Below, piece after piece: positions 14,478-36,001 of a stretch of DNA of 64,000 nt (within the stretch, counting starts at the first letter, position 1; each line of letters starts with the position of its first letter). The notes under the pieces were generated by a model, which ran no database searches, was not told where the DNA came from, and was given only the letters and a program-made list of their open reading frames with translations. The position numbers and the translations under genes were made by a program. The DNA comes from Flavobacteriales bacterium (GTDB taxonomy: Bacteria > Bacteroidota > Bacteroidia > Flavobacteriales_C > GCA-002722245), in assembly GCA_046074525.1 (NCBI GenBank), contig JBJTOK010000079.1:9894-73893 (forward strand). Reading direction: 5' to 3'.

Positions 14478-14488
14478 AAGTGTTTTTT

Positions 14489-14638
14489 AACCACAGAGAC
14501 ACCGAGATCACAGAGTTCATACTGTCACAGAGTTTACAGCTTAACGCTGGAGATCACAGAGTCCCACACTCTGTGATCTCCAGCGTTAAGCTGTTTTCTT
14601 TGCGCGCGATACCTCTGTGACCTCTGTGCCCTGTGGTT
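14489..14638. repeat. Intergenic nested-hairpin repeat element (copy B), inverse orientation relative to copy A.
   Basis: The terminal IR is aaccacagagacaccgagatcacagag / ctctgtgacctctgtgccctgtggtt. The inner perfect 25-bp IR is cagcttaacgctggagatcacagag / ctctgtgatctccagcgttaagctg, with a 7-nt loop. It begins 12 nt after the GH2 stop. Confidence 0.5.
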
Positions 14639-14807
14639 GAAAATTGAACTTCCCGTACAAATTTATCCCTCCCTTTTTCTTTCGTACATTTTTTCCTTTC
14701 CAACCAGAACAATTCCACCCTTATTTCCGGATAATTATCCCCCTGGTGAGGAATAATTTTATGCCTTTTCCGGATGATTCAATCCCCTTTCGCGAATGAT
14801 GTGAAAG

Positions 14808-14815
14808 TAATTTTG
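14808..14815 (+). promoter_or_regulatory. Candidate -7 promoter element TAatTTTG upstream of giant gene 1.
   Basis: It matches the Bacteroidota TAnnTTTG consensus, 58 nt upstream of the ATG at 14873. Confidence 0.25.
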
Positions 14816-14872
14816 AAGTAAGCCCCGCTATGTTGCAGGGTAGGTTTATAAATCTAATTCAAACTAAATCAC

Positions 14873-17800
14873 ATGAAAAACAAATCATCAGCGAAAAGAA
14901 AGTATGGAGGAGTACTGCAAGTATGCTCCATGCGCAGTCTTTTCCTTGCAGCATTATTGACGCTGCTGGGAGGAGTGTCGGCAAATTTGTTGGCGCAATT
15001 GCCAACAGGTTTTGTGGCTAGAAAATTAACCACTAACAACATTAAAGAATGTGTGAAGATTGAACATGCACCTGATGGCCGGATTTTTATGGCCGAGAGA
15101 AGTGGTGCACTCAAAGTGTTGAAAGATGGAGTAGTGACAACCATCACTACAGTGAATACAACAACTGCTGATGAGCAGGGCTTTTTAGGAATGGCTCTTC
15201 ATTCAAGTTTTGCTCAAAATGGTAAGTTGTATGTGTATTATACTTCTGCTGATAAAACCAAACATTATTTAGATGTTATTGTTTTAGATGCAGCAAGCCA
15301 GATAGTTTCAAATACACGTTTAATGGAATTCGATCCGATTTTGGCTGGATACCACAACGGTGGAGCTATGGTGTTTAAAAACGGATATTTGTATTTGTGT
15401 ATTGGCGAAAGTAATACACAACAACAAGCTCAGTTGTTAGATACTTATCGTGGTAAAGTATTGCGTTTGCTGGATGACGGACAACCAGCGCCGGGTAACC
15501 CATATTACAACGTTGCAGGAGCTAGCCGACAGAAACAAAGTATCTGGGCCATTGGTATGCGTAATCCATGGTCGATGAGTATGGATCCTGTTTCAGGAAA
15601 ATTATTTGTTGGTAACGTTGGTGGAGGTTACGAAGAAATTAATGATGTAACTACTCCTGATCCGGCAAAAAATTACGATTATGGTTGGGGTACTGCTGGT
15701 CAATCCGGACCAGGGCAATCATCTGGTACAATCTTGCCAGCTTTTTGCTACAACAAAACCAACTGGTATACACCAACTGCTAATGGTGCTTGGAATGCCC
15801 CAAGCTCGTGTGCCATAACAACAGCATTGTTTTTTAATCCCGCCAACACCAATTATCCGAATGAATACAAAAACAAATTTTATTTCGGCGACTGGTGTCA
15901 TGATTGGCTGCGAAGCATTGATCCAAATAATCCATCGGCAGGTTTTCAGGAACCATTTTTATCAAGTGCTTTACACAGGATCTTAGGATTAAGTGTGGGT
16001 ATTGATGGCAACATCTATTACAGTGAGTACGCCGGGACAGGAAACATCTGGAGGCTCGAATATACTTTATCTAATACACCGATTGTTGTCAACCAGCCAA
16101 CCAGTCAAACGATTTATGCTCAGGATGCGGTATCCTTTAGTGTTTCAGCATCAGGAACCGGACCGTTGAGCTACAAATGGCAAAAAAATGGAGTGGATAT
16201 TCCAGGAGCAACTTCAAGTACATATACTATAGGTTCAGCTGCTGTTTCTGATGGAGGAAATTACAAAGCAATTGTATACAATGCATATGGTGAAGCAATA
16301 AGCAGCGAAGCTGTTTTAACGGTTAAGCCTTACAATGCAATTCCTGTTGCGGATATCATCACACCATTATCAAGTAACACAGCAAGTGTATTGGATGTGA
16401 TCAACTATTCAGGAGATGCTACTGATGCAGAAGATGGAACTTTACCGGCATCAGCTTTTGAATGGGAAGTACGTGTTTTCCATAAAGATTGCGGAGCATG
16501 TGAGCACTGGCATCCTGGTCCTGCAGCAACGGACGGCGTGAAATCAGGATCTTTCATCGCAGATAACGGAGGTGAGACTTCTGCCAACGTTTGGTTCCGT
16601 TTGATTTTAAGAGTGACCGATTCAGAAGGAAGGGTAGGGATTGATTCAGTAGATCTGCAACCAAACAAAGTGGTGTTAACTGTGAACAGCAACCGACCTG
16701 GTTTACAGGTGGCCATTGGATCTTCTTCAAACACGCCATATACAAAAACACAAGTAGTGAATAATGCTACCAACATGACAGCCATTTCTCCGCAAACTTT
16801 TGGTGATACAGTATATACTTTTAGTTCATGGGATCACGGTGGGCCAGCTTCACAAAACTTCCGTGTACCAAATGTAAACACAACTTACAAAGCTAATTTT
16901 ATTGGAACTTATGTTCCAAATACCAACATCGCGCTCAATAAAAAGGCGTATTCCACTTCCAACCAGAATGCAGGAAACAACGCTTCCAAAGCAGTGGATG
17001 GTGTTGCCAACAGCCGTTGGGAAAGTCAGTTCGCCGATCCGCAGGCCCTTGTGGTAAATTTAGGCGCGGTGTACAACATCACCCGCGTGAAAATTACTTG
17101 GGAAAATGCGAAAGCGAAAAACTACGAGTTGCAGACTTCTAACGACTCTATCAACTGGACACCCATCAAGTCGGTGAGCGATAACGCAACAGACATCAAT
17201 GAATGGAGTAACCTGGCTGGCACAGGTAAATTCATTCGTATGTATGGAACTCAAAGAACCACTGCTTATGGCTATTCTATTTATGAGTTTGAAGTGTTTG
17301 GTGCTTTGGCTCCGGGAGGCAACCTTGATCCTGCAGTAAGCATCACTGCTCCGGCGAACAACGCTTCTTTTGCTGCTCCAGCAGCCATCAACATCACAGC
17401 CAATGCATCCGATGCAGATGGTACTGTGAGCAAAGTTGATTTCTACAATGGAACTACATTGCTGGGTACCGACAACACTGCTCCTTATGCTTTTCCATGG
17501 AACAATGTTGCTGCGGGTACTTATACTATTTCTGCCAAGGCAACCGATAACGGAGGTGCGGTAGCTACTTCTTCTATTGCTGTTACAGTAACAGGAGCAA
17601 GCAGCAACAGCAACATCGCACTCGGCAAATACACATCGGCTTCCACAGTGTTGAACGGCAGTGGGAATACTGCTCTCAAAGCAACCGATGGCATCGCTGA
17701 TTCCCGCTGGGAAAGTGAGTTCGCTGATCCGCAGTGGATCATGGTGAACCTTGGCGCCAAGTATGACATCAGCCAGGTGAAAATCAAATGGGAAAATGCA

Positions 17801-19975
17801 ATGGCGAAAACTTACATGCTGCAAACTTCCAATGATTCTATCAACTGGACAGATGTTAAACAAGTGAACGACAATGCTGCTGAATTGAATGACCACACAG
17901 GTTTAACGGCTTCCGGTAAGTATGTTCGCATTTATGGAACAGAAAGAACAACAGGTTACGGTTACTCTATCTTCGAGCTGGAAGTATACGGAACTCCTTC
18001 TGCTGTGACCAATGCGAATCCAACAGTAAGCTTGACAGCACCTGTGAACAATGCTTCGTTTACTGCTCCGGCCAGCATTTCTATCTCGGCTAATGCTGTC
18101 GATGCTGATGGCACTGTAAGCAAAGTTGATTTTTACAATGGTGCTACTTTGCTGGGCACCGATAATACTGCGCCTTACACTTATACCTGGAGCAATGTGG
18201 CTGCCGGAACTTATGCGATCACAGCAAAAGCCACCGACAATCAAAATGCAACTACCACTTCAGCTGCAGTGAATGTAACAGTGAATGCCGTCAGTGGAAC
18301 CAACCTTGCACTGAGCAAAATCATCTGGTCTTCTTCCAATGAAAATGGAGGCACACCTGCAACAGGCGCTAACGACGGCGTAGCGAATACAAGATGGTCA
18401 TCCAAATTCGCCGATCCGCAGTGGATCACTGTTGACCTCGGTGCTTCATACGACATCAACCGCGTAAAAATTACCTGGGAAAATGCGAAAGCAAAAGATT
18501 ACCAAATTCGTATGTCGAATGACACGATCAACTGGACTACTGTTAAACCAGTTTCTGGTAATACGGCTACAGTGAATGATCACACCGGATTGACAGGCTC
18601 TGGTCGCTACTTGAGAATTTACGGTACAGCAAGAACAACTGCTTACGGTTATTCCATCTTTGAACTGGAAGCGTACGGTACATTGGCAGGTGTGAGCAAT
18701 ACTGCTCCAACAGTGAGCCTGACTTCACCAGCCAACAACGCCACGTTTACTTCACCAGCCAGCATCTCTATCGCGGCTACTGCTGCCGATGCTGATGGAA
18801 CAGTAAGTAAAGTTGATTTCTATAATGGTGCTACTTTGCTGGGAACAGCAACTGTTGCTCCTTATACTTTCAGCTGGAACAATGTTGCTGCAGGAACTTA
18901 TACCATCACCGCACAAGCTACCGATAACCAAAACGCAGTAACAACATCTGCTGCAGTTAATATTACGGTGAATACGCCTGCGAATGTTGCTCCGACTGTG
19001 AGTTTGACTTCACCTTCGAACAACGCTGTGTTTACTTCGCCGGCTGCTATCTCCATTGCAGCCAACGCTGCCGATGCTGACGGAACTGTAAGTAAAGTGG
19101 ATTTCTACAATGGCGCTACTTTACTGGGTACCGATAACACTGCTCCTTATACTTTCACCTGGAGTAATGTAGGGACCGGAACTTATGCTATCACCGCAAA
19201 GGCGACCGATAATTCCAATGCAGAAACAACATCTGCTGCTGTAAATGTAACAGTGAATGCTGCTACCAATGTAAATTTGGCTTTGAGTAAACTCACCTGG
19301 GCTTCTTCTATTGAGAATGGTGGTACACAAGCTTACAAAGCAACAGATGGTGTAGCCAATTCAAGATGGTCGTCAAAATTTGCGGATCCACAATGGATCA
19401 CTGTTGACCTTGGTGCTGTTTACGATATCAACCGTGTGAAAATTACCTGGGAAAATGCGAAAGGTAAAAATTACCAGGTGTTGGTTTCCAACGACACTGT
19501 AAACTGGACGTCTGCAAAAACAGTAACTGGTAACACAGCGTTGGTGAATGATCACACTGGTTTAACTTCTACCGGTCGCTATGTTAGAATTTACGGTACT
19601 GCCAGAACAACAGGTTACGGTTATTCTATTTTCGAACTGGAAGTTTATGGAACCTTGTCTCCTGCTCCTGCGCCAATGGCTGCTGAAGAAACAACAACTA
19701 CTGTTGTGGATTTGATTTCAGTAAAAGAAGGAGTAGTGACTTATCCGAATCCTTTCAGCAATGAACTTACAGTGATTGCGCTTTTCCAAACTCCTTCCAT
19801 GGTTAATCTGCTCATCGTAGATGTGAAAGGTTCCGTGGTAGTCGATAGGGATTATGAAAACACCAGCGGTCACTTTGAAAATAAAATCAACGTGGAGAAT
19901 TTACCAGCCGGACAATATGTGCTGAAATTATTTTCGGGTAACGAAGTGTTTACTCAAAAATTAGTGAAGTACTAA
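14873..19975 (+). CDS. Giant (1700 aa) T9SS-secreted surface protein. It has an N-terminal PQQ-type glucose/sorbosone-dehydrogenase-like beta-propeller, an Ig (I-set-like) domain, four [discoidin F5/8 type C + bacterial Ig] modules and a T9SS type-A CTD.
   Basis: The GSDH-like motifs are (GFLGMALH, HNGGAMVFKNGYLYLCIGE, GKVLRLLDDGQPAPGNPY, IWAIGMRNPWSMSMDP, NYDYGWG). The repeated discoidin blocks are (NSRWESQFADPQ...VKITWENAKAKNY...YGYSIYEFEV). The C-terminal Por tail is (YPNPFSNEL...GQYVLKLFSGNEVFTQKLVKY). Confidence 0.8.
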   Translation: MKNKSSAKRKYGGVLQVCSMRSLFLAALLTLLGGVSANLLAQLPTGFVARKLTTNNIKECVKIEHAPDGRIFMAERSGALKVLKDGVVTTITTVNTTTADEQGFLGMALHSSFAQNGKLYVYYTSADKTKHYLDVIVLDAASQIVSNTRLMEFDPILAGYHNGGAMVFKNGYLYLCIGESNTQQQAQLLDTYRGKVLRLLDDGQPAPGNPYYNVAGASRQKQSIWAIGMRNPWSMSMDPVSGKLFVGNVGGGYEEINDVTTPDPAKNYDYGWGTAGQSGPGQSSGTILPAFCYNKTNWYTPTANGAWNAPSSCAITTALFFNPANTNYPNEYKNKFYFGDWCHDWLRSIDPNNPSAGFQEPFLSSALHRILGLSVGIDGNIYYSEYAGTGNIWRLEYTLSNTPIVVNQPTSQTIYAQDAVSFSVSASGTGPLSYKWQKNGVDIPGATSSTYTIGSAAVSDGGNYKAIVYNAYGEAISSEAVLTVKPYNAIPVADIITPLSSNTASVLDVINYSGDATDAEDGTLPASAFEWEVRVFHKDCGACEHWHPGPAATDGVKSGSFIADNGGETSANVWFRLILRVTDSEGRVGIDSVDLQPNKVVLTVNSNRPGLQVAIGSSSNTPYTKTQVVNNATNMTAISPQTFGDTVYTFSSWDHGGPASQNFRVPNVNTTYKANFIGTYVPNTNIALNKKAYSTSNQNAGNNASKAVDGVANSRWESQFADPQALVVNLGAVYNITRVKITWENAKAKNYELQTSNDSINWTPIKSVSDNATDINEWSNLAGTGKFIRMYGTQRTTAYGYSIYEFEVFGALAPGGNLDPAVSITAPANNASFAAPAAINITANASDADGTVSKVDFYNGTTLLGTDNTAPYAFPWNNVAAGTYTISAKATDNGGAVATSSIAVTVTGASSNSNIALGKYTSASTVLNGSGNTALKATDGIADSRWESEFADPQWIMVNLGAKYDISQVKIKWENAMAKTYMLQTSNDSINWTDVKQVNDNAAELNDHTGLTASGKYVRIYGTERTTGYGYSIFELEVYGTPSAVTNANPTVSLTAPVNNASFTAPASISISANAVDADGTVSKVDFYNGATLLGTDNTAPYTYTWSNVAAGTYAITAKATDNQNATTTSAAVNVTVNAVSGTNLALSKIIWSSSNENGGTPATGANDGVANTRWSSKFADPQWITVDLGASYDINRVKITWENAKAKDYQIRMSNDTINWTTVKPVSGNTATVNDHTGLTGSGRYLRIYGTARTTAYGYSIFELEAYGTLAGVSNTAPTVSLTSPANNATFTSPASISIAATAADADGTVSKVDFYNGATLLGTATVAPYTFSWNNVAAGTYTITAQATDNQNAVTTSAAVNITVNTPANVAPTVSLTSPSNNAVFTSPAAISIAANAADADGTVSKVDFYNGATLLGTDNTAPYTFTWSNVGTGTYAITAKATDNSNAETTSAAVNVTVNAATNVNLALSKLTWASSIENGGTQAYKATDGVANSRWSSKFADPQWITVDLGAVYDINRVKITWENAKGKNYQVLVSNDTVNWTSAKTVTGNTALVNDHTGLTSTGRYVRIYGTARTTGYGYSIFELEVYGTLSPAPAPMAAEETTTTVVDLISVKEGVVTYPNPFSNELTVIALFQTPSMVNLLIVDVKGSVVVDRDYENTSGHFENKINVENLPAGQYVLKLFSGNEVFTQKLVKY

Positions 19976-20017
19976 GAGGTTCAGTAATGTGAATTTTTAG
20001 AAACGTTTTATCATAAG

Positions 20018-20052
20018 ATAGCCCCTCTTTGCAGAGGGGCTATTTTTTTTTA
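20018..20052 (+). terminator. Intrinsic terminator after giant gene 1 (atagcccctct ttgc agaggggctat + T9).
   Basis: An 11-bp perfect stem, a 4-nt loop and a U-tract lie 43 nt after the stop. Confidence 0.6.
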
Positions 20053-20301
20053 TCCCTCTTGCGAGGCTTTATTTTACAGGTATTTCAGGATTGTGTGAAT
20101 GATATTGTACTGTTTGTGAATAATTGAATGCCACTTTTTTTGACCCCATGAGAACGATTGTGCTCCTGTTTGCGAATGATTTGTTCCAGTTGTACGACAT
20201 CTGCGAACGTAGCTTTGTGGGGAAGATTCTCGTGAGTCATTGTTTTCCGCATAAACACGACCCAAGAGAATGGGTATAGTAAATAACTAAAAACTAAAAG
20301 A

Positions 20302-23300
20302 ATGAAAAACAAATCATCCACAAAAAGAAAGTATGGAGGAACACTGCAAGTGTGCTCTATGCGTAGTCTTTTCCTTGTGTCGCTATTGATGCTGCTGGGA
20401 GGAGTATCCCAAAGTTTGTTTGCACAATTGCCGGAAGGCTTTGTGAAAAACAAATTAACCAACAACAACATCGCCGATGCAGTAAAAATGGAACACGCTG
20501 CTGACGGCAGAATTTTTATTGCCGAACTGGGAGGTAAAATTAAAGTGCTGCAAAACGGTGTGGTATCACTTGTGCATAGTGTTGCCACCAATACCAATGA
20601 TGAGCAGGGTTTGTTAGGTATTGCTCTTCATACCAATTTTGCCACCAATGGTAAATTGTATTTGTATTACACCGCTCCCGACAAATCAAAACATTTTTTG
20701 GATGTGATTGTTGTGGATGGCGATAACCAGGTAGTGTCATCCACCCGTGTTATGGAATTTGATCCTATATTATTCGGCTACCATAACGGTGGTGCAATGC
20801 TGTTTAAAAACGGTTATTTGTATTTGTGTATCGGCGAAAGTAATGCTCCGCAGTACGCTAATGATCTTACTACTTACCGTGGTAAAATTTTGCGTTTGCT
20901 GGATGACGGTCAGCCTGCGCCTGGCAACCCTTACTACGATACTCCGGGCGCCAACCGCCAGCAAAAAAGCATCTGGGCAACAGGAATGCGTAATCCATGG
21001 TCGATGAGTATGGATCCTACCACCCAAAAAATATATGTGGGTAACGTAGGTGGAACTTACGAAGAGATCAACGATGTAACAGCTCCCGATGCTGCGAGAA
21101 ATTACAATTACGGTTGGGCGGCTTCCGGTAAATCCGGATCGGAACAGGATGCCAATACTATCCTTCCTGTGTTTTGTTATAGCGGCGCAGAGGCGATTCA
21201 AAAATGGCAGTCGCCCACTACACAAGGCGACTGGATACAAGGCTCCTGTGCAATCACTACGGGAACATTTTTCAATCCTGCCATCACCAATTATCCGGCG
21301 GAATACAGAAACAGATTTTATTTTTCCGACTGGTGTCAGCTATGGATCAGAAGCATCAATCCTGCGAATACCACCACGGGTTTTCAAACCAATTTTGCTG
21401 ATCAGGGTTTCAACAGAATTTTGGGGTTGAGCACAGGTATCGACGGAAACCTCTATTACATTGAGCATGCAGGCGGAGGAAATATTTACCGACTGGAATA
21501 CACCTTGTCTAATCAGCCTGTCATCGTAAACAATCCATCTTCTCAAACGGTGTATGCCCAGGATGCAGTTTCTTTTTCGGTAGCTTCATCAGGTGCCAAT
21601 CCTAAGTCTTATCAATGGCAAAAAAACGGTACTAATATTTCAGGTGCAACAGCGAGCACTTATGCTATCTCTTCTGCAGCAGAAGCCAATGCAGGAAATT
21701 ACAGAGTAATTGTGAGCAACAGCTATGGTGCTGATACCAGTGATGCAGCGGTGTTGACCGTATTGCCTTACAATGCTATTCCGGTAGCGCACATCACATC
21801 ACCTGCTTCTACAGTAACGGCAAGTGTTTTGGATGTGGTGAACTATTCAGGAACAGGATCAGATGCCGAAGATGGAATATTGCCGGCTTCTGCATTCAAT
21901 TGGGAAGTGCGTGTTTTCCACAAAGATTGCGGAACCTGTGAGCACTGGCATCCTGGTCCGAATGCACCCGACGGTGTGACTTCAGGATCTTTCACAGCCG
22001 ACAACGGAGGAGAATCTTCTTCCAACGTTTGGTTTCGTTTGATTTTAAGAGTAACGGATTCAGAGGGAAGAGTGGGGACGGATTCAGTAGATCTTCAACC
22101 CAACAAAGTGGTATTGACTGTGAACAGCAGCAAACCAGGTTTGCAGGTGGTGATCGGATCTTCTTCCATTACGCCCTACAACAAAACACAGGTAGTGAAC
22201 AATGCCATTAATATTACTGCTATCACACCGCAAACTATTGGTGATACAGTGTATACCTTCAGTTCATGGGATCATGGTGGAGTGGCTTCACAAAGCATCC
22301 GAGTGCCTAATGTGAACACTACTTACAAAGCTAATTTTACTGCTGCTTACGTAAGCAACACCAATCATGCTTTGAATAAAATTGCCGGTTCATCATCTAA
22401 TCAGGGTGGCAATACTGCTAATAAAGCGGTAGATGGAGATTTCAATTCCCGCTGGGAAAGTCAGTCTTCCGATCCGCAATTCCTGGTGGTGAATTTAGGT
22501 GCAGTTTACGACATCAATCGCGTGAAAATTTACTGGGAAAATGCAAAAGCGAAAAATTATCTGGTGGAAACTTCTATGGACTCTGTGGTGTGGGATAAGA
22601 TGAAAGAGGTGACCGATAATGCAACGGATATCAATGAGTGGAGCAACTTATCTGGTACAGGAAAGTACGTTAGAATTTTCGGAACGGAAAGAACAACCAA
22701 CTACGGCTATTCAATTTTTGAATTGCAGGTATTTGGTGCTTTGCATCAGGGAGGTTCTAATACTTTGCCTACAGTGAGCATCACTGCGCCATCCAACAAT
22801 GCCAATTTTTCAACACCAGCCGAAATCAATATTACAGCCAATGCTGCCGATGCAGACGGTACTGTAAGCAAGGTTGATTTTTACAATGGTGCTACTTTGC
22901 TTGGAACCGATAACACTGCTCCTTATGCGTATACCTGGAGCAATGTTGCTGCGGGAACTTATACCATCACAGCAAAAGCAACCGATAATCAGAATGCAGT
23001 AAAGACTTCTTCTGCTGTGACTGTAGTAGTAGGTGCGGTAGCGACTAACGTAGCGCTGAACAAAACTACTTATGTGTCTTCTTCTTTGGGAGGAAATTCC
23101 AAAGCGAATGCAGTAGATGGTAACTTGAATTCCCGCTGGGAAAGTGCTTTCTCTGATCCGCAATACATCACTGTGGATCTCGGTGCTGTTTACGACATCA
23201 GTCGCGTACACATCGTGTGGGAAAATGCGAAAGCGAAGAACTACCGTGTTCTGGCTTCTAACGATACATTGAGCTGGCCGGATACTTTGAAAACAGTGGT

Positions 23301-25314
23301 GAACAACACGCAGGACGACAACAACTGGACTGGTTTGTCATCCAGCCGCCGCTTTGTTAGAATTTACGGAACAGAAAGAACGACGAACTATGGCTATTCT
23401 ATTTTTGAACTGGAAGTTTATGGCGTGCCTGCATCCGGCGGAAATGCGAATCCGACAGTAAGCTTGACCGCTCCGGCAAACAACGCTTCGTTCAATGCTC
23501 CGGCTACTATCAATATCACCGCCAACGCAGCTGATTCGGATGGTACAATAAGCAAAGTGGATTTCTACAATGGTACTACCTTATTGGGAACCGACAACGC
23601 TGCACCTTATGCTTACACCTGGACTGGCGTTGCTGCCGGGACTTATGCGATCACGGCAAAAGCTACCGACAACCAGAATGCAGTAACTACTTCTTCTGCG
23701 GTGAATGTTACCGTGAGCTCACCAAACACTGTGAACCTGGCGTTGAACAAACCAACTTACTCTTCTTCGGATGAAAATGCCGGCACCCCTGCAAGCAACG
23801 CAACCGATGGGAATGGCAACTCCCGCTGGTCGAGTGAGTTTTCTGATCCACAACACCTCATTGTGAATTTAGGCGCTGTGTATGACATCAGCCGAATTAA
23901 AATCAATTGGGAAAATGCAAAAGCGAAGAAGTACAATTTGCTGGTATCGGTAGATAGCTTGGTTTGGGACACTGTGAAAACAGTAAATAACAATGAACAA
24001 AATGAGAATGACTGGACAGTGAGCGGCACTGGTCAATACGTGAAAATGTATGGCACCGAAAGAACCACTCCTTACGGTTATTCTATTTTTGAATTAGAAG
24101 TGTATGGCGCTGCTGCCAATGCGCAGCCAACTGTGAGTATCACATCCCCTGCTAACAACGCCGGTTTCCTTTCTCCTGCAACGATCAGCATTACAGCTAA
24201 TGCAGGGGATGCCGACGGAAGTGTGAGTCAGGTTGATTTCTACAACGGCGCTACTTTGCTGGGCAGCGACAATACTGCTCCATATTCTTATACCTGGACC
24301 AACGTTGCTGTTGGATCATATGCCATCACAGCTAAGGCTACCGATAACAACGGTGCAGTGACAACGTCATCTGCCGTAAATTTTACGGTAAGTGTACCTG
24401 TTAACCTTGCGCTGAACAAGCCAACGTATTCTTCCACTGATGAGAATGGCGGAACCCCTGCAGCTAGCGCTACCGACGGTAATGCGAACTCAAGATGGTC
24501 GAGTGAGTTTTCTGATCCGCAATACCTCATCGTGAATTTAGGCACTGTGTACGATATCAGCCGCATTAAAATCAACTGGGAAAATGCAAAAGCGAAGAAA
24601 TACGATTTGCTGGTGTCTGTTGACAGCTTGAGCTGGGATACCTTGAAAACAGTACTCAACAACACCCAGAACAACAATGACTGGACGGTGAGTGGTACAG
24701 GAAAATACGTGAAAATGTATGGTGCTGAAAGAACTACGCCTTATGGTTATTCCATCTTCGAATTCGAAGTGTACGGAACCGAACATCAGGAGGTAGGAGG
24801 TTCTAACACAAATCCAACAGTGAGCATTACATCTCCTTCTAATGGTGCAATCTTCACTGCTCCGGCAAGCATCACTATCACAGCGAATGCTGCCGATAGC
24901 GATGGAAGCGTAAGCAAAGTAGATTTCTACAACGGTACTACTTTATTGGGTACCGATAATACTGCACCTTATTCTTACACCTGGAACAACGTGGCTGTAG
25001 GTAACTACGCTATTGTTGCCAAGGCTACAGATGACCAGAATGCAGTGAATGCTTCTTCAATTGTGAATGTAGTGGTGAATTCTCCTAATACTGTTAACCT
25101 TGCGCTGAACAAGCCAACCTATTCTTCTACGGATGAGAATGGCGGAAACCTGGCAGTAAATGCTACCGATGGTAACAACAACTCCCGCTGGTCGAGTCAG
25201 TTTGCTGATCCGCAACACCTAACGGACATAACTATGGCTTCAATTTCAGCAATTGTAAATACGGTTTGTACTTTGATGGAAGCAATGGAGTGGGAATTAT
25301 GTTCACCGACATGA
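20302..25314 (+). CDS. Second giant T9SS-type surface protein paralog (GSDH-like propeller, Ig domain, five discoidin/Ig modules). It is truncated: the fifth discoidin domain breaks at about 25220, the frame then runs 31 aberrant codons to a stop, and there is no CTD.
   Basis: The first 60 nt are almost identical to gene 1 (MKNKSSxKRKYGGxLQVCSMRSLFL). The same domain order is seen. The last repeat reads ..NSRWSSQFADPQHL and then departs from the repeat consensus (expected IVNLGAVYDI..). Confidence 0.7.
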   Translation: MKNKSSTKRKYGGTLQVCSMRSLFLVSLLMLLGGVSQSLFAQLPEGFVKNKLTNNNIADAVKMEHAADGRIFIAELGGKIKVLQNGVVSLVHSVATNTNDEQGLLGIALHTNFATNGKLYLYYTAPDKSKHFLDVIVVDGDNQVVSSTRVMEFDPILFGYHNGGAMLFKNGYLYLCIGESNAPQYANDLTTYRGKILRLLDDGQPAPGNPYYDTPGANRQQKSIWATGMRNPWSMSMDPTTQKIYVGNVGGTYEEINDVTAPDAARNYNYGWAASGKSGSEQDANTILPVFCYSGAEAIQKWQSPTTQGDWIQGSCAITTGTFFNPAITNYPAEYRNRFYFSDWCQLWIRSINPANTTTGFQTNFADQGFNRILGLSTGIDGNLYYIEHAGGGNIYRLEYTLSNQPVIVNNPSSQTVYAQDAVSFSVASSGANPKSYQWQKNGTNISGATASTYAISSAAEANAGNYRVIVSNSYGADTSDAAVLTVLPYNAIPVAHITSPASTVTASVLDVVNYSGTGSDAEDGILPASAFNWEVRVFHKDCGTCEHWHPGPNAPDGVTSGSFTADNGGESSSNVWFRLILRVTDSEGRVGTDSVDLQPNKVVLTVNSSKPGLQVVIGSSSITPYNKTQVVNNAINITAITPQTIGDTVYTFSSWDHGGVASQSIRVPNVNTTYKANFTAAYVSNTNHALNKIAGSSSNQGGNTANKAVDGDFNSRWESQSSDPQFLVVNLGAVYDINRVKIYWENAKAKNYLVETSMDSVVWDKMKEVTDNATDINEWSNLSGTGKYVRIFGTERTTNYGYSIFELQVFGALHQGGSNTLPTVSITAPSNNANFSTPAEINITANAADADGTVSKVDFYNGATLLGTDNTAPYAYTWSNVAAGTYTITAKATDNQNAVKTSSAVTVVVGAVATNVALNKTTYVSSSLGGNSKANAVDGNLNSRWESAFSDPQYITVDLGAVYDISRVHIVWENAKAKNYRVLASNDTLSWPDTLKTVVNNTQDDNNWTGLSSSRRFVRIYGTERTTNYGYSIFELEVYGVPASGGNANPTVSLTAPANNASFNAPATINITANAADSDGTISKVDFYNGTTLLGTDNAAPYAYTWTGVAAGTYAITAKATDNQNAVTTSSAVNVTVSSPNTVNLALNKPTYSSSDENAGTPASNATDGNGNSRWSSEFSDPQHLIVNLGAVYDISRIKINWENAKAKKYNLLVSVDSLVWDTVKTVNNNEQNENDWTVSGTGQYVKMYGTERTTPYGYSIFELEVYGAAANAQPTVSITSPANNAGFLSPATISITANAGDADGSVSQVDFYNGATLLGSDNTAPYSYTWTNVAVGSYAITAKATDNNGAVTTSSAVNFTVSVPVNLALNKPTYSSTDENGGTPAASATDGNANSRWSSEFSDPQYLIVNLGTVYDISRIKINWENAKAKKYDLLVSVDSLSWDTLKTVLNNTQNNNDWTVSGTGKYVKMYGAERTTPYGYSIFEFEVYGTEHQEVGGSNTNPTVSITSPSNGAIFTAPASITITANAADSDGSVSKVDFYNGTTLLGTDNTAPYSYTWNNVAVGNYAIVAKATDDQNAVNASSIVNVVVNSPNTVNLALNKPTYSSTDENGGNLAVNATDGNNNSRWSSQFADPQHLTDITMASISAIVNTVCTLMEAMEWELCSPT

Positions 25315-28300
25315 AGATCACCGGCTGTGAATACGGTGTGTATGCAGCAGCAAATACAGGCGGTGTTCTGCAGTTGTATAAATGGAATATTTCGGCCACC
25401 GATGCTGCTATTTTTTCCGATAAAACTTCAGGCACTAAAATACTTTTGCAGGAATCCGCCATCGCTTCAGGAAAAGTGCAATTGCAAGGTGGAACCTTGC
25501 TTGCTACTGATAACGATTTCAATAACACGGCGCCGCAAATCCAGTTTGAATACAACTCCCGAGGTAACCTCACCGGCAATCGTTTTAAAAATGCAGTAAA
25601 CATTTCCGAAAAATCTGTTTTCCTCAACCAGATTGATCACACTCCGGTAAGCTCTATTAAACTTCCTGCGTATTATGAATTTATACCGCAATCGAAAAAA
25701 CCTTCACGTAATGTAATGTACAATGTGTTGAATTATGGTGTTACTGCGGGAACCCGCGATGCTATTCCTGCAGGAGATGCAACAACAGGAATTCAAAATG
25801 CACTCAATCAGGCGAAGAATGATGGTGGTGGAATTGTTTATCTTCCGCCGGGGCATTACAGAATCAATGGTTCTCTCACGATTCCCACAGGTGTGGAATT
25901 AAAAGGTTCGGTGGATATAGGGGAGTTCCCTTTGGGGCCTGGATCCATCCTTGAAATTTATGGAAACAAAGGAAATGAAAATGGAGCTTCTCCTGTGATT
26001 TTACAGCAGGGTAGCGGTTTACGTGGTGTGGTGTTCAATTATCCCGACCAGGTTTTTTGTACTGTACTTCCCAATGCGGTGTTGAAATTTCCTTATTCGG
26101 TTCAGGTGCAAGGCAGTGATGCCTATATCGTAAATGTTGGATTCCGTGCAGCTTACAAAGCAGTAGATTTATTTTCCTACAAAAGTGATCGCTTCTATCT
26201 CGATTTCCTTACGGGACATGTATTCAATGAAGGTGCTAAAGTGGGCGCCGCCTCTGCTGATGGTATAATCGCAAATATGCAGTTCAATACCATCGCTTAC
26301 AACTGCGGTGATGAATCGAAATTTGGCGGATGGCCTAATTCGCTTCGCTCGCCATGTTCGGGTGATGCTACTAAAAATCCTTACGACTACAACGCTAAAT
26401 ATCTCGACTTCCTTATCGTGGGCAATGCGCCGGATATCATGCTGTACAACGATTTTAATTATGATGCGAATCATGGCTTGATTTTGCAGGATGGTGCTTC
26501 GGGAACTGCCATCGGTTTAGGTTTGGATGGCGATCGTACCGGAATTTTAGTGGATGGAAATGCCAATTTCTCTTTCATCAATACACAGGATGTATCTCTT
26601 AATTATGATGCCTTGGGAGGTGAACAATCCAGCTATCTGAAAACGACTTCCAACTTCAATGCTGGTTCCATTAATCTCTTCAGTTGCGATTATTGGGGAC
26701 AAGCTACCAGCAGTGGTATTGTGATGGATGGCGCAGGAACAGTGAATCTGCAATCATCAAATTTTGAGAGTCCCGGCAGCCAGTCTTTTGCCCAAGTCAA
26801 TAACGGAACGTTGAATATCAACAACTCGGTAGTGAACCCAAAAGATCCTCTGGTGAACGGTACGCATCTGTCGGGTGTTAATATCGTGGGTTCCGATGTA
26901 ACTCCTTATACCATCAATACGAACTTGCTTGGCAATTACGATAACAATATAGGCACCGCAAAACCTTCGCCAACCAGTTCTCTCAGCAGGACAGGTTGGA
27001 TTGCTACATCGTCAAGGAATGTTAATTCGGGACGTGTTGCTCAAAATGGAATTGATGGAGATGCTAATACCAGCTGGAGCAGTGGCTGGCAAAACGATGG
27101 CGCAGCCATCTGGTACCAGGTAGATATGCTTGTGCCGCAGACTTTCAATGAAGTGATTCTGGATTACAGCGGAAGTCCGAACGACGGTCCTGCATCTTAT
27201 ACTTTCTCAGTATCCAATGATGGCGTTAACTGGACGCAGGTAGCCTCCGGCACAGGAAATAATATGATGACCATTATTTCCTTTCCTGAAACTACAGCAC
27301 GTTATATCCGCATGGATAAGCCTGCCAATGCAAGTAAAGCCAATTTCCTGGCGATTCATGAATTGTATGTATTCAATGTAAAAGCTGCCGCAGGCAATCT
27401 GGTGGCGGTGCCGATGAAAAATCCCTTGTACCACCAGTTCACATCGCCATTGTATGGTTCTGCGGGAACAGGAAATATGTACACTGCCGATCCTTCTGCA
27501 CACGTATGGGCCGATGGTCGTTTGTATGTTTATGCATCACACGATATGGAGCCAGCACAAGGGTGCGATAGAATGGATCGCTATCATGTTTTCTCTACCG
27601 ATGATATGACCAACTGGGTAGATCATGGTGAAATTCTCAGCGCGAGTCAGGTTTCCTGGGGGCGCGCTGAAGGTGGTTTCATGTGGGCACCTGATTGCGC
27701 ATACAATCCGGCCAATCAGACTTACTATTTTTATTATCCTCATCCAAGCGGTACCGATTGGGGTGCTACCTGGAAAATAGGCGTGGCTACTTCTAAGGAA
27801 CCTGCAGCTAATTTTACCGATCAGGGCTATATCACAGGAATGTCATCTCTCATTGATCCTTGCGTTTTTGTCGACGATGACGGTCAGCCTTATATTTATC
27901 AGGGTGGCGGTGGAACCTGTATGGGGGGTAAACTCGATAAAAATGACTGGACCAAATTGGATGGCGCCATGCAGCCTATGACGGGTTTGGTCGATTTTCA
28001 CGAAGCTACATGGGTACACAAATACAATGGAAAATATTATTTGTCGCACGCCGATAACCACGGCGTTGATGGCAATCAGCTGAAATATGCTGTGAGCAAC
28101 AGTCCGCTCGGACCATGGACCGACATGGGTGTGCTGATGTACGCCACGGGTTGCGATACGCATCATGGTTCAATTGTGGAATACAAAGGTCAGTGGTGGT
28201 CTTTCTATCACACCAGCAATTTCTCAGGCGAATACAACCTGCGTTCGGTATGTGCAGATAAGCTTTACTACAATAATGATGGTAGCATTCAACCAGTAAA

Positions 28301-29519
28301 CAACTGGGGTACTGCTTTCAAGAGCAATGTGGTGGCGGTTACCAACAACACTACAGATGTTGCTCTCACTGTGGAAGCCGAGGATTTCAATAATGGTGGT
28401 TCACATTATGGTTACTGGGATAAAACCGATGCCAATTCAGGAGGCAATAATTCCCGTTCAGGAGAAGGAGTGGATATTGAAACCCGTGGTAATGTGGTGG
28501 ATATAGGATGGATTGAGAATGGCGAATGGTTGAGGTATACGGTGAATGTTACCAAGGCAGGCTTGTACGATATCGATTTCACTGTGGCTGCAGGCAATAC
28601 GGGAGGAAAATTCCATTTGAGCGTGAATGGCACTAATTTATCGGGCGACCTAACTGTTCCTAATACAGGAGATTGGGGGAATTGGACTACTGTTACGGCT
28701 CTCAATATTCCTTTGCAGGCGGGCGAGCAGTACATTGATTTGCGTTTCAATGGCGGATTCAATCTGGATAAGTTTCAGTTCCGCAAATCAGCACCATACC
28801 AGGGCACGGCGTATAATGGTCCGCACAACGTTCCCGGAACTTTTGAAGCCGAAGATTATGACAATGGTGGAACAGGAGTGGCTTATTATGACAGCGATGT
28901 CGCCAACAACAGCGGTGCTTACAGAACAACAGAAGGCGTAGATCTGGAAACCTCCAACGGTAGTACGCACATCAGCTGGTCGAATAGTGGTGAGTGGACC
29001 AAGTACACTATTGTTGTGGCTACTGATGGCACTTATGAAGTGCAGATTCCTGTGTCTACGGGCAATGGCGCAGCAGGGACCTTGTCGCTCACTTTCGATG
29101 ATGTGTATACTGTACCTGTCGCCAGCATCAATACCGGCAACTGGAACACCTATCAATCACTTACGATCAAAGACATTCAGCTTACGGCCGGAACGCACGT
29201 AATGAAGCTGAATATTGGCGGAAACATCAATGTAGATCAATTCACTTTTACGAAAAGCATTACCACAGCAATGCCGGAAGCGACTGCGCAGCATCACATC
29301 AGCATTTATCCTAACCCTTCGGCCGATGGTATTTTTAATATCAAAGCCACGCAGCAGGGGCAGCTGATCATCAGTGATGTGGCAGGCAAAATGGTGCTGA
29401 GCGAAATAGTGGCTGAGCCGGGAAACATTGATTTGTCGGGCCGTGCGTCGGGTATTTATATTGCTACGTTTATTACCGGAGAGCAGACTTACAGGTTTAA
29501 GCTGATGGTGAATAAATAA
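25266..29519 (+). CDS. 5'-truncated composite glycoside hydrolase, possibly a pseudogene or gene fusion. It has a Pectate_lyase_3-type right-handed beta-helix (GH55-like exo-beta-1,3-glucanase architecture), a discoidin/CBM32-like domain, a GH43-like five-bladed propeller, two CBM6-like domains and a T9SS type-A CTD. The coding frame is open from 25209 (after a TGA) with no signal peptide. The ORF-track start is a TTG.
   Basis: The beta-helix start motif is YNVLNYGVTAGTRDA..DATTGIQNALNQAKNDGGGIVYLPPGHYRING. The discoidin block is NTSWSS...YIRMD. GH43 motifs are (ADPSAHVWADGRLYVYASHD, WAPDCAY, DPCVFVDDDG). Two modules of TVEAEDFNNGG...LDKFQF / TFEAEDYDNGG...VDQFTF are present. The Por tail is (ISIYPNPSADGIF...YRFKLMVNK). 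Confidence 0.6.
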   Translation: MYFDGSNGVGIMFTDMKITGCEYGVYAAANTGGVLQLYKWNISATDAAIFSDKTSGTKILLQESAIASGKVQLQGGTLLATDNDFNNTAPQIQFEYNSRGNLTGNRFKNAVNISEKSVFLNQIDHTPVSSIKLPAYYEFIPQSKKPSRNVMYNVLNYGVTAGTRDAIPAGDATTGIQNALNQAKNDGGGIVYLPPGHYRINGSLTIPTGVELKGSVDIGEFPLGPGSILEIYGNKGNENGASPVILQQGSGLRGVVFNYPDQVFCTVLPNAVLKFPYSVQVQGSDAYIVNVGFRAAYKAVDLFSYKSDRFYLDFLTGHVFNEGAKVGAASADGIIANMQFNTIAYNCGDESKFGGWPNSLRSPCSGDATKNPYDYNAKYLDFLIVGNAPDIMLYNDFNYDANHGLILQDGASGTAIGLGLDGDRTGILVDGNANFSFINTQDVSLNYDALGGEQSSYLKTTSNFNAGSINLFSCDYWGQATSSGIVMDGAGTVNLQSSNFESPGSQSFAQVNNGTLNINNSVVNPKDPLVNGTHLSGVNIVGSDVTPYTINTNLLGNYDNNIGTAKPSPTSSLSRTGWIATSSRNVNSGRVAQNGIDGDANTSWSSGWQNDGAAIWYQVDMLVPQTFNEVILDYSGSPNDGPASYTFSVSNDGVNWTQVASGTGNNMMTIISFPETTARYIRMDKPANASKANFLAIHELYVFNVKAAAGNLVAVPMKNPLYHQFTSPLYGSAGTGNMYTADPSAHVWADGRLYVYASHDMEPAQGCDRMDRYHVFSTDDMTNWVDHGEILSASQVSWGRAEGGFMWAPDCAYNPANQTYYFYYPHPSGTDWGATWKIGVATSKEPAANFTDQGYITGMSSLIDPCVFVDDDGQPYIYQGGGGTCMGGKLDKNDWTKLDGAMQPMTGLVDFHEATWVHKYNGKYYLSHADNHGVDGNQLKYAVSNSPLGPWTDMGVLMYATGCDTHHGSIVEYKGQWWSFYHTSNFSGEYNLRSVCADKLYYNNDGSIQPVNNWGTAFKSNVVAVTNNTTDVALTVEAEDFNNGGSHYGYWDKTDANSGGNNSRSGEGVDIETRGNVVDIGWIENGEWLRYTVNVTKAGLYDIDFTVAAGNTGGKFHLSVNGTNLSGDLTVPNTGDWGNWTTVTALNIPLQAGEQYIDLRFNGGFNLDKFQFRKSAPYQGTAYNGPHNVPGTFEAEDYDNGGTGVAYYDSDVANNSGAYRTTEGVDLETSNGSTHISWSNSGEWTKYTIVVATDGTYEVQIPVSTGNGAAGTLSLTFDDVYTVPVASINTGNWNTYQSLTIKDIQLTAGTHVMKLNIGGNINVDQFTFTKSITTAMPEATAQHHISIYPNPSADGIFNIKATQQGQLIISDVAGKMVLSEIVAEPGNIDLSGRASGIYIATFITGEQTYRFKLMVNK

Positions 29520-29693: not shown

Positions 29694-31301
29694 GTGAAAT
29701 ATAAGTTTTTATTGATTTGTTGTTTCGCCTTTACTTTCGTGGCCTTTGCCAGTGAAGACGAAGATACCATGTATGTCCAGCTGGACAGTCTTTTGGAACA
29801 AAAACCACAACTTGTAAAAGATAAGCAACAGCGTATTCAATCGCTGGCCCGTATGTTGTTCGATAGCGAGCGCCGAAAAGACGTGCAGAGCCAATTTCAA
29901 TTTTGCGCCAAGCTTTTTGAAGAATACAAATCCTTCCAGTACGATTCGGCTTTTAAGTACACCGACCGTATGCTTAAGCTTGCCTACGTCCTCAATGATC
30001 CCGCGAAAATCAACAACGCAAAAGTCAATTTTAGTTTTATTTTCCTTTCATCTGGGATGTTTAAGGAAGCCCTGGATACTTTGTCTACAGTTGATGCGAT
30101 GGCGCTGCCTGTAGCGGAAAGAATCAATTTCTATAAAGTTTTTGCCCGCACTTATTTTGATCTTTCGGATTTCTCGCAAAGTCAGCAATACAGTCAGTCT
30201 TATAATAATAAAGGCGATGAGTATGTCACCCGTGCTCTCGATCTTTCGGAGAAAGCGTCGGCAGAGTACCTTTTCCTTAAGGCTTGGAAATACATGCGTA
30301 TCCGCAACATTGAAATGGCCATTAAAACCTACCAGAAGCTTCTCTTGTATTATAATCTCACCCAACACGAATATGCTATTGTAACTTCCAGTTTGAGCTT
30401 CATGTACATGCTCGATAACAACCAGGAGAAGCACAAGGAATTCCTGATTAAAGCTGCCATTGCGGATATCCGGGGATGTGTGTTTGAAACAGTGGCATTG
30501 CGCAATCTTGCGGAAATTGTATACAAGGAAGGGAATTATGAGCGTGCTTACCGCTACATCAAAATTGCCAATGATGATGCTTATGCCTATGGCGCAAAAT
30601 TCCGCCAGGTGCAGGTGGCTTATCTCCTGCCGATGATAGAAGCTGCCCAAATGAATGAAGTGGAAAGCAAAAGAAGAAATCTCATCGTTTTCGCGCTCTT
30701 TGCGAGTTTAGTGAGCGTATTGATCTTTATTTTGTACTTCATAGTTTACCGCAACAACATTAAACTTAAACTGGCTAAACAAAGTTTGGTGGAGTCACAT
30801 GTGCATTTACAGGTACTCAATAATACCCTTCAGGATGCCAATAAAATCAAGGAGGAATATATCGGTCACTTCTTCACAGCGATTTCAGACTACATAGATA
30901 AATTGGATAAACTCAAGAATTCCATCGACAGGAAAATTACGCAAAACAGGACTGATCAGATACGTGATGTGGTGAAGCAAATTAATCTTAAGGCGGAAAG
31001 GGAGGAACTATATGGTAATTTCGATAGGATTTTCCTCAAAATATTTCCTGATTTCATCCCTAAATTCAATAGCTTCCTCAATGAAGATGCAAAATATGTA
31101 ATTGAGGAGAATGCCCCGTTGCCGCCTGAATTGAGAATTTTTGCTCTGATTCGTTTAGGGATCAATGACAATGAGAAAATTGCGCAGTTTTTAGGATATT
31201 CCATCAATACGATTTATACCTATAAAACGAGATTGAAGAACAAAACCATTGTCCCTAATGAAAAGCTGGAAGTGCGGGTGATGGAAATCAAAGCGAATTG
31301 A
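29694..31301 (+). CDS. Membrane-anchored one-component regulator candidate. It has a signal peptide, an extracytoplasmic TPR-like region, a single TM helix and a cytoplasmic coiled-coil plus C-terminal helix-turn-helix (DUF6377-like architecture).
   Basis: The signal is MKYKFLLICCFAFTFVAFA and the TM segment is LIVFALFASLVSVLIFILYFIVY. The C-terminal LuxR/HTH-like segment is ELRIFALIRLGINDNEKIAQFLGYSINTIYTYKTRLKNK. Confidence 0.5.
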   Translation: MKYKFLLICCFAFTFVAFASEDEDTMYVQLDSLLEQKPQLVKDKQQRIQSLARMLFDSERRKDVQSQFQFCAKLFEEYKSFQYDSAFKYTDRMLKLAYVLNDPAKINNAKVNFSFIFLSSGMFKEALDTLSTVDAMALPVAERINFYKVFARTYFDLSDFSQSQQYSQSYNNKGDEYVTRALDLSEKASAEYLFLKAWKYMRIRNIEMAIKTYQKLLLYYNLTQHEYAIVTSSLSFMYMLDNNQEKHKEFLIKAAIADIRGCVFETVALRNLAEIVYKEGNYERAYRYIKIANDDAYAYGAKFRQVQVAYLLPMIEAAQMNEVESKRRNLIVFALFASLVSVLIFILYFIVYRNNIKLKLAKQSLVESHVHLQVLNNTLQDANKIKEEYIGHFFTAISDYIDKLDKLKNSIDRKITQNRTDQIRDVVKQINLKAEREELYGNFDRIFLKIFPDFIPKFNSFLNEDAKYVIEENAPLPPELRIFALIRLGINDNEKIAQFLGYSINTIYTYKTRLKNKTIVPNEKLEVRVMEIKAN

Positions 31302-36000: not shown

Positions 36001-36001
36001 T

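Follow-up and report, generated by a model that had tools for sequence, protein, structure and literature searches.

An old tandem pair of GSDH-propeller and discoidin genes, one truncated by a deletion, in a Flavobacteriales metagenome-assembled genome

Six-bladed beta-propellers of the glucose/sorbosone dehydrogenase (GSDH) type are found in free enzymes and in secreted proteins with carbohydrate-binding modules (CBMs). The free enzymes, related to aldose sugar dehydrogenase (Asd) and soluble glucose dehydrogenase (sGDH), are single-domain, periplasmic proteins of ~350-450 aa, such as those of E. coli (Asd/YliI, 2G8S), T. thermophilus (2ISM), P. aerophilum (3A9G), Sorangium (7CDY) and A. calcoaceticus (1C9U). 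The fungal AA12 enzyme CcPDH unites a pyrroloquinoline quinone (PQQ) propeller with a cytochrome b and a CBM1, and its built-in cytochrome is reportedly an electron outlet that drives lytic polysaccharide monooxygenases (LPMOs). In the gammaproteobacterium Teredinibacter turnerae, the secreted proteins TERTU_2567 and TERTU_3803 combine GSDH with CBM5/10 or CBM2 and cytochrome c; they belong to the secretome of a polysaccharide degrader, and their function is unproven (PMC12055684). These Teredinibacter proteins and the AA12-like six-bladed enzymes are the nearest counterparts in the literature of a tandem gene pair, here called gene 1 and gene 2, at positions 14873-25314 of the DNA analyzed in this study, a 64-kb window of contig JBJTOK010000079.1 from a metagenome-assembled genome (MAG) labelled Flavobacteriales bacterium. 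Our overall explanation is that the pair stems from an old duplication, that gene 1 encodes a secreted, glycan-tethered propeller protein, and that gene 2 was truncated by a deletion. Taken as a whole, we consider this explanation fairly probable.

The two large open reading frames (ORFs) of the original prediction were present at the expected positions, both on the plus strand, and encode proteins of 1700 aa (gene 1) and 1670 aa (gene 2). Both products had already been deposited, that of gene 1 as the identical protein MFM7024329.1 (NCBI name ‘discoidin domain-containing protein’) and that of gene 2 as MFM7024330.1 (‘Ig-like domain-containing protein’). Searches of Pfam, NCBIfam and the PDB as well as AlphaFold and Foldseek agreed with the predicted domains, namely a GSDH propeller, an I-set-like immunoglobulin (Ig) domain, and F5/8-C (discoidin) plus bacterial Ig domains. 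GSDH (PF07995) was matched with 142 bits in gene 1 and 125.5 bits in gene 2 (cut-off 25), F5_F8_type_C (PF00754) with four complete stretches per gene (263 and 244 bits; PF22633 was also matched), and Big_7 with four stretches in each gene, and the scores for Ig_3/I-set were near the threshold in both. The C-terminal domain (CTD) of the type IX secretion system (T9SS) expected in gene 1 was confirmed there and matched in gene 1 only (Por_Secre_tail, PF18962, 47 bits versus a cut-off of 27; TIGR04183, 38.7 versus 23). Neither PF18962 nor TIGR04183 matched gene 2, because the deletion described below removed its C-terminus. Hence, of the proposed pair of T9SS cargos, gene 1 is an intact cargo, whereas gene 2 lost its C-terminus and any CTD in the deletion. 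Four other CTD-bearing ORFs are located in or adjoining the window region and provide indirect evidence for T9SS machinery in the genome. Besides the truncation of gene 2, the original prediction had also missed two beta-sandwich domains (~200 aa, referred to as X and Y) between the Ig domain and the first discoidin domain. Since gene 1 ends in its own terminator-like hairpin, the two genes look separately transcribed. The signal peptides were judged by eye. Their hydrophobic core reads LLTLLGGVS in gene 1 and LLMLLGGVS in gene 2, ahead of A-Q/LP, and leaders of 27-37 aa before ‘QxPxGF’ are typical across the protein family.

This family is large. A search with the first 690 residues retrieved 857 proteins at E<1e-10, and the best 120 of these shared 36-63% identity over >90% of the query, were 662-1186 aa long and had one or two CBMs. 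The labelled members among these 120 were Bacteroidota (Chitinophaga, Ohtaekwangia, Niastella, Spirosoma, Fibrisoma, Xanthocytophaga, Rhodocytophaga and Hymenobacter). In the family layout, GSDH and Ig are followed by CBM6/35, F5/8-C, Big_7, PA14, NPCBM or ricin modules and by Por_Secre_tail, and the names given by the sources are ‘PQQ-dependent sugar dehydrogenase’, ‘carbohydrate-binding protein’ or ‘glucose/arabinose dehydrogenase’. For two homologues, the genomic context was examined, and both were solitary genes without a conserved partner. The window genes share the GSDH-Ig-X-Y cassette, the CBMs and Por_Secre_tail with this family, but differ from it in having four to five discoidin and four Big_7 domains, a length of 1670-1700 aa and a tandem arrangement with one member truncated; their best match has 63% identity. 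They are thus long-array members of an abundant, annotated and biochemically uncharacterized Bacteroidota family. The original statement that the function is unknown thus overstated the novelty of the locus, as more than 850 detected Bacteroidota proteins have the cassette, several of them are named, and both window genes are deposited. The design is common in Bacteroidota and already annotated, and the locus is otherwise routine. Within this family, gene 1 very probably encodes a T9SS-secreted, multivalent glycan binder. Given the domain assignments, the earlier description of the proteins as multivalent and glycan-binding, possibly oxidoreductase-linked, was a fair reading.

The proteins of gene 1 and gene 2 are 68% identical over 1388 aligned residues. 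The rate of synonymous substitution between the paralogues (dS) is about 1-2.8, with synonymous sites near saturation, and the ratio of nonsynonymous to synonymous rates (omega) is 0.08-0.20 in each domain. The longest exact repeat of the 10.4-kb locus, and the sole one of ≥30 nt, measures 33 nt (15557-15589 and 20986-21018); it is located inside both propellers, not in the modules, and encodes MRNPWSMSMDP with the conserved Arg-Asn motif. The pair is an old tandem duplication of one multi-domain gene. An assembly artefact, collapsed or duplicated, had been named as a possible refutation and is ruled out by the amino acid and synonymous divergence, the shortness of the longest exact repeat and the terminator of gene 1. 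The N-termini of the two proteins, described earlier as an identical stretch of 25 residues that differs at third codon positions, are nearly identical (23/25 residues), with five of the eight differences in the first 75 nt at third codon positions. Upstream of the genes, the similarity fades ~12 nt before the ATG. The first 25 codons (14873-14947 versus 20302-20376) have 89% nucleotide identity and a dS of 0.39, compared to ~1.6 in the propeller and to the gene-wide range given above. Such a low dS points either to a short tract of gene conversion or to a constraint that acts on the nucleotide sequence of the 5' end. The 25-codon leader motif had no other occurrence among the genes of the window.

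The propeller resembles the Asd/sGDH enzymes in its fold, its GSDH match and its catalytic face, although it heads a 1700-aa T9SS cargo with Ig domains and CBMs. PDB profile matches comprised 2ISM, 2G8S, 3A9G, 7CDY and 1C9U (E 1e-38 to 1e-20). An AlphaFold2 (AF2) model of gene 1 aa 42-690 reached a predicted local distance difference test score (pLDDT) of 91, and the target-normalized template modeling (TM) scores of Foldseek were 0.82-0.85 to 2ISM, 3A9G, 2G8S and 7CDY, and 0.57 to Hedgehog-interacting protein (HHIP). For the roles of the residues we followed PMC6881789, with the sequence of E. coli Asd as numbering ruler, and conservation was counted over 120 homologues. The key residues of the gene 1 propeller are His161, Arg230-Asn231, Glu254-Glu255, Arg369 and Cys313/Cys342. 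His161 corresponds to sGDH His144, the catalytic base, and Arg230/Asn231 correspond to sGDH Arg228/Asn229, which polarize PQQ (PMC6881789). Both window genes and 120/120 homologues have these three residues and the Glu254/Glu255 pair without exception. The check for PQQ- and Ca-binding residues suggested with the original prediction therefore had a divided outcome, with an intact catalytic face but no conservation of the C-terminal ligands of the PQQ carboxylates.

Several observations weigh against a PQQ enzyme. The equivalent of sGDH Arg408 is Leu in both window genes and Leu, Val or Ile in 118/120 homologues, and that of sGDH Lys377 is Cys in both window genes and in 115/120. At the position of sGDH Arg406, which with CcPDH Arg621 represents the C-terminal Arg present in every six-bladed PQQ enzyme (PMC6881789), Arg was found in only 22/120 homologues and Ser in 50, so that it is lost in 82% of the members; yet both window genes have Arg there (Arg369, Arg372). 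The Asd motif QRIRDV, which holds the equivalents of Arg406 and Arg408, thus reads HRILGL or NRILGL in the window genes. Furthermore, neither the 64-kb window nor the surroundings of the two homologues examined contained pqq biosynthesis genes, a cytochrome c or another electron acceptor, and a biochemical characterization of any family member was not found in the searchable literature. Because the C-terminal PQQ-carboxylate ligands are not conserved, PQQ dependence is unproven. However, fungal AA12 enzymes also lack Lys377, and a first-blade Arg replaces Arg408 in them (PMC6881789), so the missing equivalents do not exclude PQQ. A blade-1 Arg (Arg70, in PDGR) is invariant in the family and could, by analogy, stand in for Arg408 as the blade-1 Arg of AA12 does. 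On sequence grounds, PQQ binding by the propeller would seem neither established nor excluded, and we propose only tentatively, with confidence just short of evenly balanced, that the gene 1 propeller is a PQQ-dependent aldose dehydrogenase.

The best-surviving alternative is that the propeller is not a PQQ enzyme and that its fold and pocket are kept for another chemistry or for ligand binding, as in the GSDH-like propeller of HHIP. In that case, the proteins would serve only in adhesion or glycan capture, or would represent a type of enzyme not yet described. The family-wide loss of the carboxylate ligands and the lack of PQQ synthesis and acceptor genes in the loci examined favor this possibility, as do the presence of HHIP among the PDB matches (E 1e-14) and the fact that the annotation pipeline PGAP gave neither window protein a dehydrogenase name. 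The complete invariance of the His, Arg-Asn and Glu-Glu residues across the 120 homologues argues for catalysis instead, the fold is far closer to the Asd enzymes than to HHIP according to the TM scores, and the precedent of AA12 weakens the argument from the lost ligands. We regard this alternative as a serious though somewhat doubtful one. The Deinococcus SOD-propeller lactonase was considered as a source of another chemistry and dismissed, as the propeller there belongs to the SGL family and not to GSDH. Cys313 and Cys342 (15809-15811 and 15896-15898) in blade 5 are nearly invariant in the family, and one of them replaces the PQQ-carboxylate Lys of sGDH; this Cys pair could be a disulfide or a metal ligand pair.

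Compared to CcPDH, the window genes likewise encode an extracellular, CBM-tethered six-bladed propeller without Lys377 and with a blade-1 Arg that in CcPDH serves PQQ (PMC6881789). In contrast to CcPDH, they show no haem domain or LPMO and have a propeller nearer to the Asd type. No AA12 entry was among the best 50 Foldseek matches listed, and the 64-kb window contained no LPMO genes. With TERTU_2567/3803 the window genes share the fusion of a bacterial, secreted GSDH to CBMs, but they have CBM32, Ig domains and a T9SS CTD, and no cytochrome.

The modules downstream of the cassette are discoidin domains (D; F5/8-C, CBM32-like, ~125 aa) and Big_7 Ig-like spacers (B, ~93 aa). Their period is about 687 bp (range 669-690 bp), one extra Big_7 adds 285 bp, and the nucleotide identity from module to module is 58-83%. 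These values do not agree with the predicted repeats of roughly 600 bp and high nucleotide identity. Given this divergence and the 33-nt limit on exact repeats, which moreover fall in the propellers, the modules are too dissimilar to make the locus notably recombinogenic, as had been proposed, and the only rearrangement seen at the locus used microhomology with an unrelated gene. The modules of the paralogues correspond by position, as D1 of gene 1 and D1 of gene 2 are 69% identical and a putative ligand-site position (equivalent to Glu14 of DD2, see below) varies along the array in the same way in both genes, and the closest module pairs are intragenic (77% aa identity for 1D3/1D4; 80-84% for 2D3/2D4/2D5). 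Together, these two patterns indicate that the ancestor already had D1-D2-D3 and that the D3 type was re-duplicated later in each copy. There are thus three discoidin types, of which the third was re-duplicated independently in each paralogue.

The closest solved relatives of all discoidin modules are the CBM32 modules DD1 and DD2 of the Paenibacillus sp. IK-5 chitosanase/glucanase (4ZY9, 2RVA; E 3e-28, full length, ~45% identity). DD1 and DD2, which are assigned to CBM32 (PMC12154041), bind chitosan, and a discoidin domain of a Paenibacillus GH16 beta-1,3-glucanase binds several polysaccharides and makes the enzyme more active towards composite substrates (PMC2789033). The Big_7 units match Ig-like spacers of chitodextrinase, GH9 and CelAly enzymes. 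Shinya et al. 2016 are said to have identified Glu14, Arg31, Tyr36 and Glu61 as the ligand-contact residues of DD2. The equivalents of Arg31 and Glu61 are invariant in the discoidin modules of the window, and that of Glu14 is Gln in D1, Leu in D2 and Glu from D3 on, in both genes. Two points speak against reading the ligand directly from these relatives, namely that the Tyr36 equivalent is Phe or Ser and that the ligand would be assigned by homology only. The glycan-related neighbor genes and the closest characterized CBM32 modules suggest fungal-type wall material (beta-glucan with chitosan or chitin) as the target, by analogy a reasonable yet unproven assignment.

According to the mechanism we propose, the gene 1 protein would be exported by Sec, cross the outer membrane through the T9SS by means of its type A CTD, and then be released or anchored at the cell surface. 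Its four discoidin modules, with Ig spacers between them, would bind cell-wall polysaccharide multivalently and with mixed specificity. Held at the polymer, the propeller would act on sugars that are bound or set free, most probably by oxidizing reducing-end aldoses to lactones with environmental PQQ and Ca2+, as E. coli Asd does, and the electrons would pass to some acceptor. The steps of export and binding draw on well-supported domain identities; for the oxidation by the propeller, which we infer, the balance is roughly even.

The I-set-like Ig domain of gene 1 matches Ig-like repeats of the phage tail proteins 9ncf_S and 9c2d_S (whole-chain E 4e-40 and 1e-34) far better than cellular Ig domains. 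For the X-Y region, no Pfam family was matched. Its AF2 model has a pLDDT of 96, with only generic Ig, pilin and PKD folds as neighbors, and the Y domain is InlB-B-repeat-like. X-Y is the part best conserved between the paralogues (82% aa identity; nonsynonymous rate, dN, 0.12). In the X domain, His537, His545 and His547 within FHKDCGACEHWHPGP (His-x7-His-x-His) are invariant across 46 family members; a metal site at this position is possible but speculative. According to an exhaustive search, 4005 cluster representatives contain the X-Y unit, some of them more than once. Of 36 that were chosen on purpose to be atypical, 16 also have GSDH, and the remainder pair X-Y with PA14, PKD, Laminin_G_3, CBM96 or NPCBM. 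As X-Y also occurs without GSDH, it is a general extracellular module and not a dedicated partner of the propeller. The missing Arg408 and Lys377 equivalents, the conserved Cys pair and the invariant blade-1 Arg led us to consider whether the GSDH-Ig-X-Y cassette represents a separate class of redox enzyme, secreted and tethered to polysaccharide, in which PQQ is not bound as it is in the bacterial enzymes, with the His cluster of X as a metal site (for example for copper) that could be an electron outlet or a second catalytic center. This idea is unlikely, and the occurrence of X-Y without GSDH weakens the suggestion of a redox partner.

In contrast to gene 1, gene 2 ends abruptly. Its product closes with ...NSRWSSQFADPQHL, where D5 stops after ...FADPQHL, followed by 30 unrelated residues and the stop. 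The D5 remnant has 80-83% nucleotide identity to D3 and D4 of gene 2. The other frame of the same DNA reads ATPNGHNYGFNFSNCKYGLYFDG... and runs on as a 1417-codon ORF (25266-29519), here called ORF3, which was deposited as a 1402-aa coding sequence from the ATG at 25311 (MFM7024331.1). Pfam matches of ORF3 comprise a pectate-lyase-like beta-helix (PF12708), F5/8-C, GH43, two CBM6 and a T9SS CTD, and a signal peptide is lacking. The GH55 label of the beta-helix part is tentative, as PF12708 was the only family matched there and the beta-helix part of the intact homologue had no PDB sequence match. This homologue comes from the one related locus that a genome scan gave, in a groundwater MAG (L001, JAHEZL010000023, 9896-15097); it is 1733 aa long, 83-84% identical to ORF3, and equipped with a signal peptide and two beta-helix matches. 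The homology of ORF3 begins at residue 300 of the intact protein, and hence the signal peptide and ~299 aa, with the start of the first beta-helix domain, were lost. A metagenome scan with an ORF3 alignment yielded a second full-length homologue (L002, 47% identity).

At the junction, GCAACACC(TAA) reads D-P-Q-H-L in the discoidin frame and A-T-P-N in the frame of the beta-helix gene. The discoidin repeats have GATCC(A/G)CAA(C/T)ACCTCAT at this site, compared to ACTGCAACACCAAACGG in L001 and GATCCGCAACACCTAACGG in the window. Because 8-11 nt at the junction are common to both source sequences, we conclude that a microhomology-mediated deletion fused D5 of gene 2 out of frame to codon ~300 of the beta-helix/GH43 gene. 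The sequence comparison indicates a deletion of at least about 1.6 kb, which took out the remainder of D5, any further modules, the gene 2 CTD, the spacer between the two genes and ~299 codons at the 5' end of ORF3. The metagenome scan with the gene 2 cassette found no relatives carrying the pair, and the scan with ORF3 gave, besides L002, irrelevant gut GH43 genes; the state before the deletion was thus not recovered. As neither ORF carries a further disruption, the deletion is probably recent, and gene 2 and ORF3 are most likely recent pseudogenes. Without its CTD, gene 2 cannot be a T9SS cargo and its product would at best be stranded in the periplasm, and the ORF3 product is no longer exportable after the loss of the signal peptide. 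Since the domains on either side of the junction are both interrupted mid-fold, we rejected programmed frameshifting as an explanation.

A different fate of gene 2 would be that of a functional paralogue without CTD, located in the periplasm or using another export route, with the fusion under selection; in a variant of this scenario, the 1402-aa GH43 protein would be translationally coupled. Gene 2 is indeed intact for 1640 codons with an omega of ~0.15 versus gene 1, and its out-of-frame stop overlaps the in-frame ATG of ORF3 (ATGA at 25311-25314). Still, the low omega mirrors the long history before the deletion, the break falls inside the discoidin fold and inside the beta-helix domain and not at domain boundaries, the gene 2 tail consists of 30 residues of out-of-frame sequence, and the CTD of ORF3 is useless without Sec export. 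We therefore judge a functional truncated gene 2 to be highly improbable, compared to the pseudogene interpretation.

The Logan contig SRR29270175_10286 is identical to positions 20989-39519 of the window (18,531 nt, 0 mismatches), including the junction, and breaks at the 33-nt propeller repeat, as expected from the k value of Logan, which builds a short-k graph. The exact reproduction of the junction in this assembly of SRR29270175 shows that it is not an assembler artefact, with the caveats that the reads behind the Logan contig are probably those of the MAG and that a strain-level polymorphism, with intact alleles in the population, stays compatible with the data. That the junction is an assembly or library artefact and the real gene 2 intact with a CTD, as the MAG origin of the window and the biologically senseless fusion of reading frames might suggest, is the least probable scenario of all, since the 8-11 nt common at the junction are far below assembler k-mer sizes and an independent assembly contains the same junction and breaks elsewhere. 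The features of the locus are listed in Table 1.

Table 1 Coordinates of the features at the gene pair and downstream of it (positions in the window; D, discoidin domain; B, Big_7 domain).
Feature	Position	Strand	Evidence
Gene 1, intact member of the pair	14873..19975	+	ORF list, translation, Pfam, identity to MFM7024329.1
Long N-terminal region with putative Sec-type signal peptide, gene 1 aa 1-41 (...LLTLLGGVSANLLA/QLP)	14873..14995	+	Inspection
Six-bladed GSDH/Asd-type beta-propeller, gene 1 aa 42-398	14996..16066	+	PF07995, PDB profile matches, AF2/Foldseek
I-set-like Ig domain, gene 1 aa 403-483	16079..16321	+	Pfam Ig_3/I-set near threshold; phage tail matches
X-Y, two beta-sandwich domains, gene 1 aa 488-682	16334..16918	+	AF2 model, conservation
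Module array D1-B1-D2-B2-D3-B3-B4-D4, gene 1	16925..19672	+	Pfam, module boundaries, identity matrix
T9SS type A C-terminal sorting domain, gene 1 aa 1624-1698	19742..19966	+	PF18962 and TIGR04183
Hairpin, strong and intrinsic-terminator-like, 14-bp stem (20015-20046) and T-run, 3' of gene 1	20015..20056	+	Sequence
Gene 2, same cassette and D1-B1-D2-B2-D3-B3-D4-B4, then truncated D5; without CTD	20302..25314	+	ORF list, Pfam, NCBIfam, module comparison
Truncated D5 of gene 2, first ~42 of ~125 residues kept	25096..25221	+	Module comparison
Deletion junction, GCAACACC(TAA), 8-11 nt microhomology	25212..25222	+	Frame comparison, Logan contig
30 out-of-frame codons (TDITMASISAIVNTVCTLMEAMEWELCSPT) and stop, beta-helix gene in the wrong frame	25222..25314	+	Translation
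ORF3, beheaded beta-helix (GH55-like)/F5/8-C/GH43/2xCBM6/T9SS-CTD gene	25221..29519	+	Pfam, homologue alignment
SusR-family glycan-utilization regulator	29694..31301	+	NCBIfam NF058541 574 bits; Pfam DUF6377

The location of the pair next to glycan-related genes, noted in the original prediction, was confirmed, as the neighbors include two GH16 genes, a GH2 gene, the beta-helix/GH43/CBM6 gene and a SusR-family regulator. Synteny between the window and L001 extends over the beta-helix/GH43 gene and the regulator (82-84% aa identity; 82% for the regulator), with a spacer of 174 versus 176 nt. In the region L001:7081-9896, compared with window positions 12606-25220, L001 has a G8/CTD protein on the other strand upstream. 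No GSDH-discoidin gene was found upstream of the beta-helix/GH43 gene in L001, and no Flavobacteriales were among the labelled members of the best 120 of the 857 homologues. Judging from these comparisons, the pair may be a lineage-specific acquisition, or may have been lost in L001.

Other parts of the window contained further features. A palindromic intergenic element rich in CACAGAG/CTCTGTG occurs in two copies (10118-10197 and 14492-14622), the second of which forms a hairpin with a 20-bp stem at 14542-14588, just 3' of the GH2 gene; the element looks like a repetitive extragenic palindromic (REP)-type repeat with an additional role as a terminator. Five sizeable ORFs (578, 650, 192, 533 and 437 aa; 2673-6373, 7313-7891 and 38944-42039) had no Pfam match at the thresholds used, and the first three of them adjoin the GH16 gene at 6387-7289. 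An exopolysaccharide- or capsule-type cluster is located at 46705-54783 on the minus strand and contains genes for a Wzz/tyrosine-kinase-like protein, Poly_export, GT1 and GT4 glycosyltransferases, an asparagine synthase and a GT4-family phosphotransferase.

For the annotation of the locus, our results imply that MFM7024330.1 and MFM7024331.1, as the two halves of one deletion scar, need to be regarded as disrupted genes. They also call for caution with the label ‘PQQ-dependent sugar dehydrogenase’, which in this large Bacteroidota family rests on the fold and half an active site. The pair is also a clean case of how CBM32 modules expand in nature, comprising three types of module and an independent re-duplication in two paralogues. 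Should the cassette represent the distinct redox class considered above, it would be a bacterial counterpart of the fungal CBM-linked AA12 systems for the oxidative attack on, or the sensing of, cell-wall glycans. If the family turns out to consist of genuine glycan oxidoreductases that act outside the cell, it would be relevant to how Bacteroidota of soil and freshwater turn over polysaccharides by oxidation.

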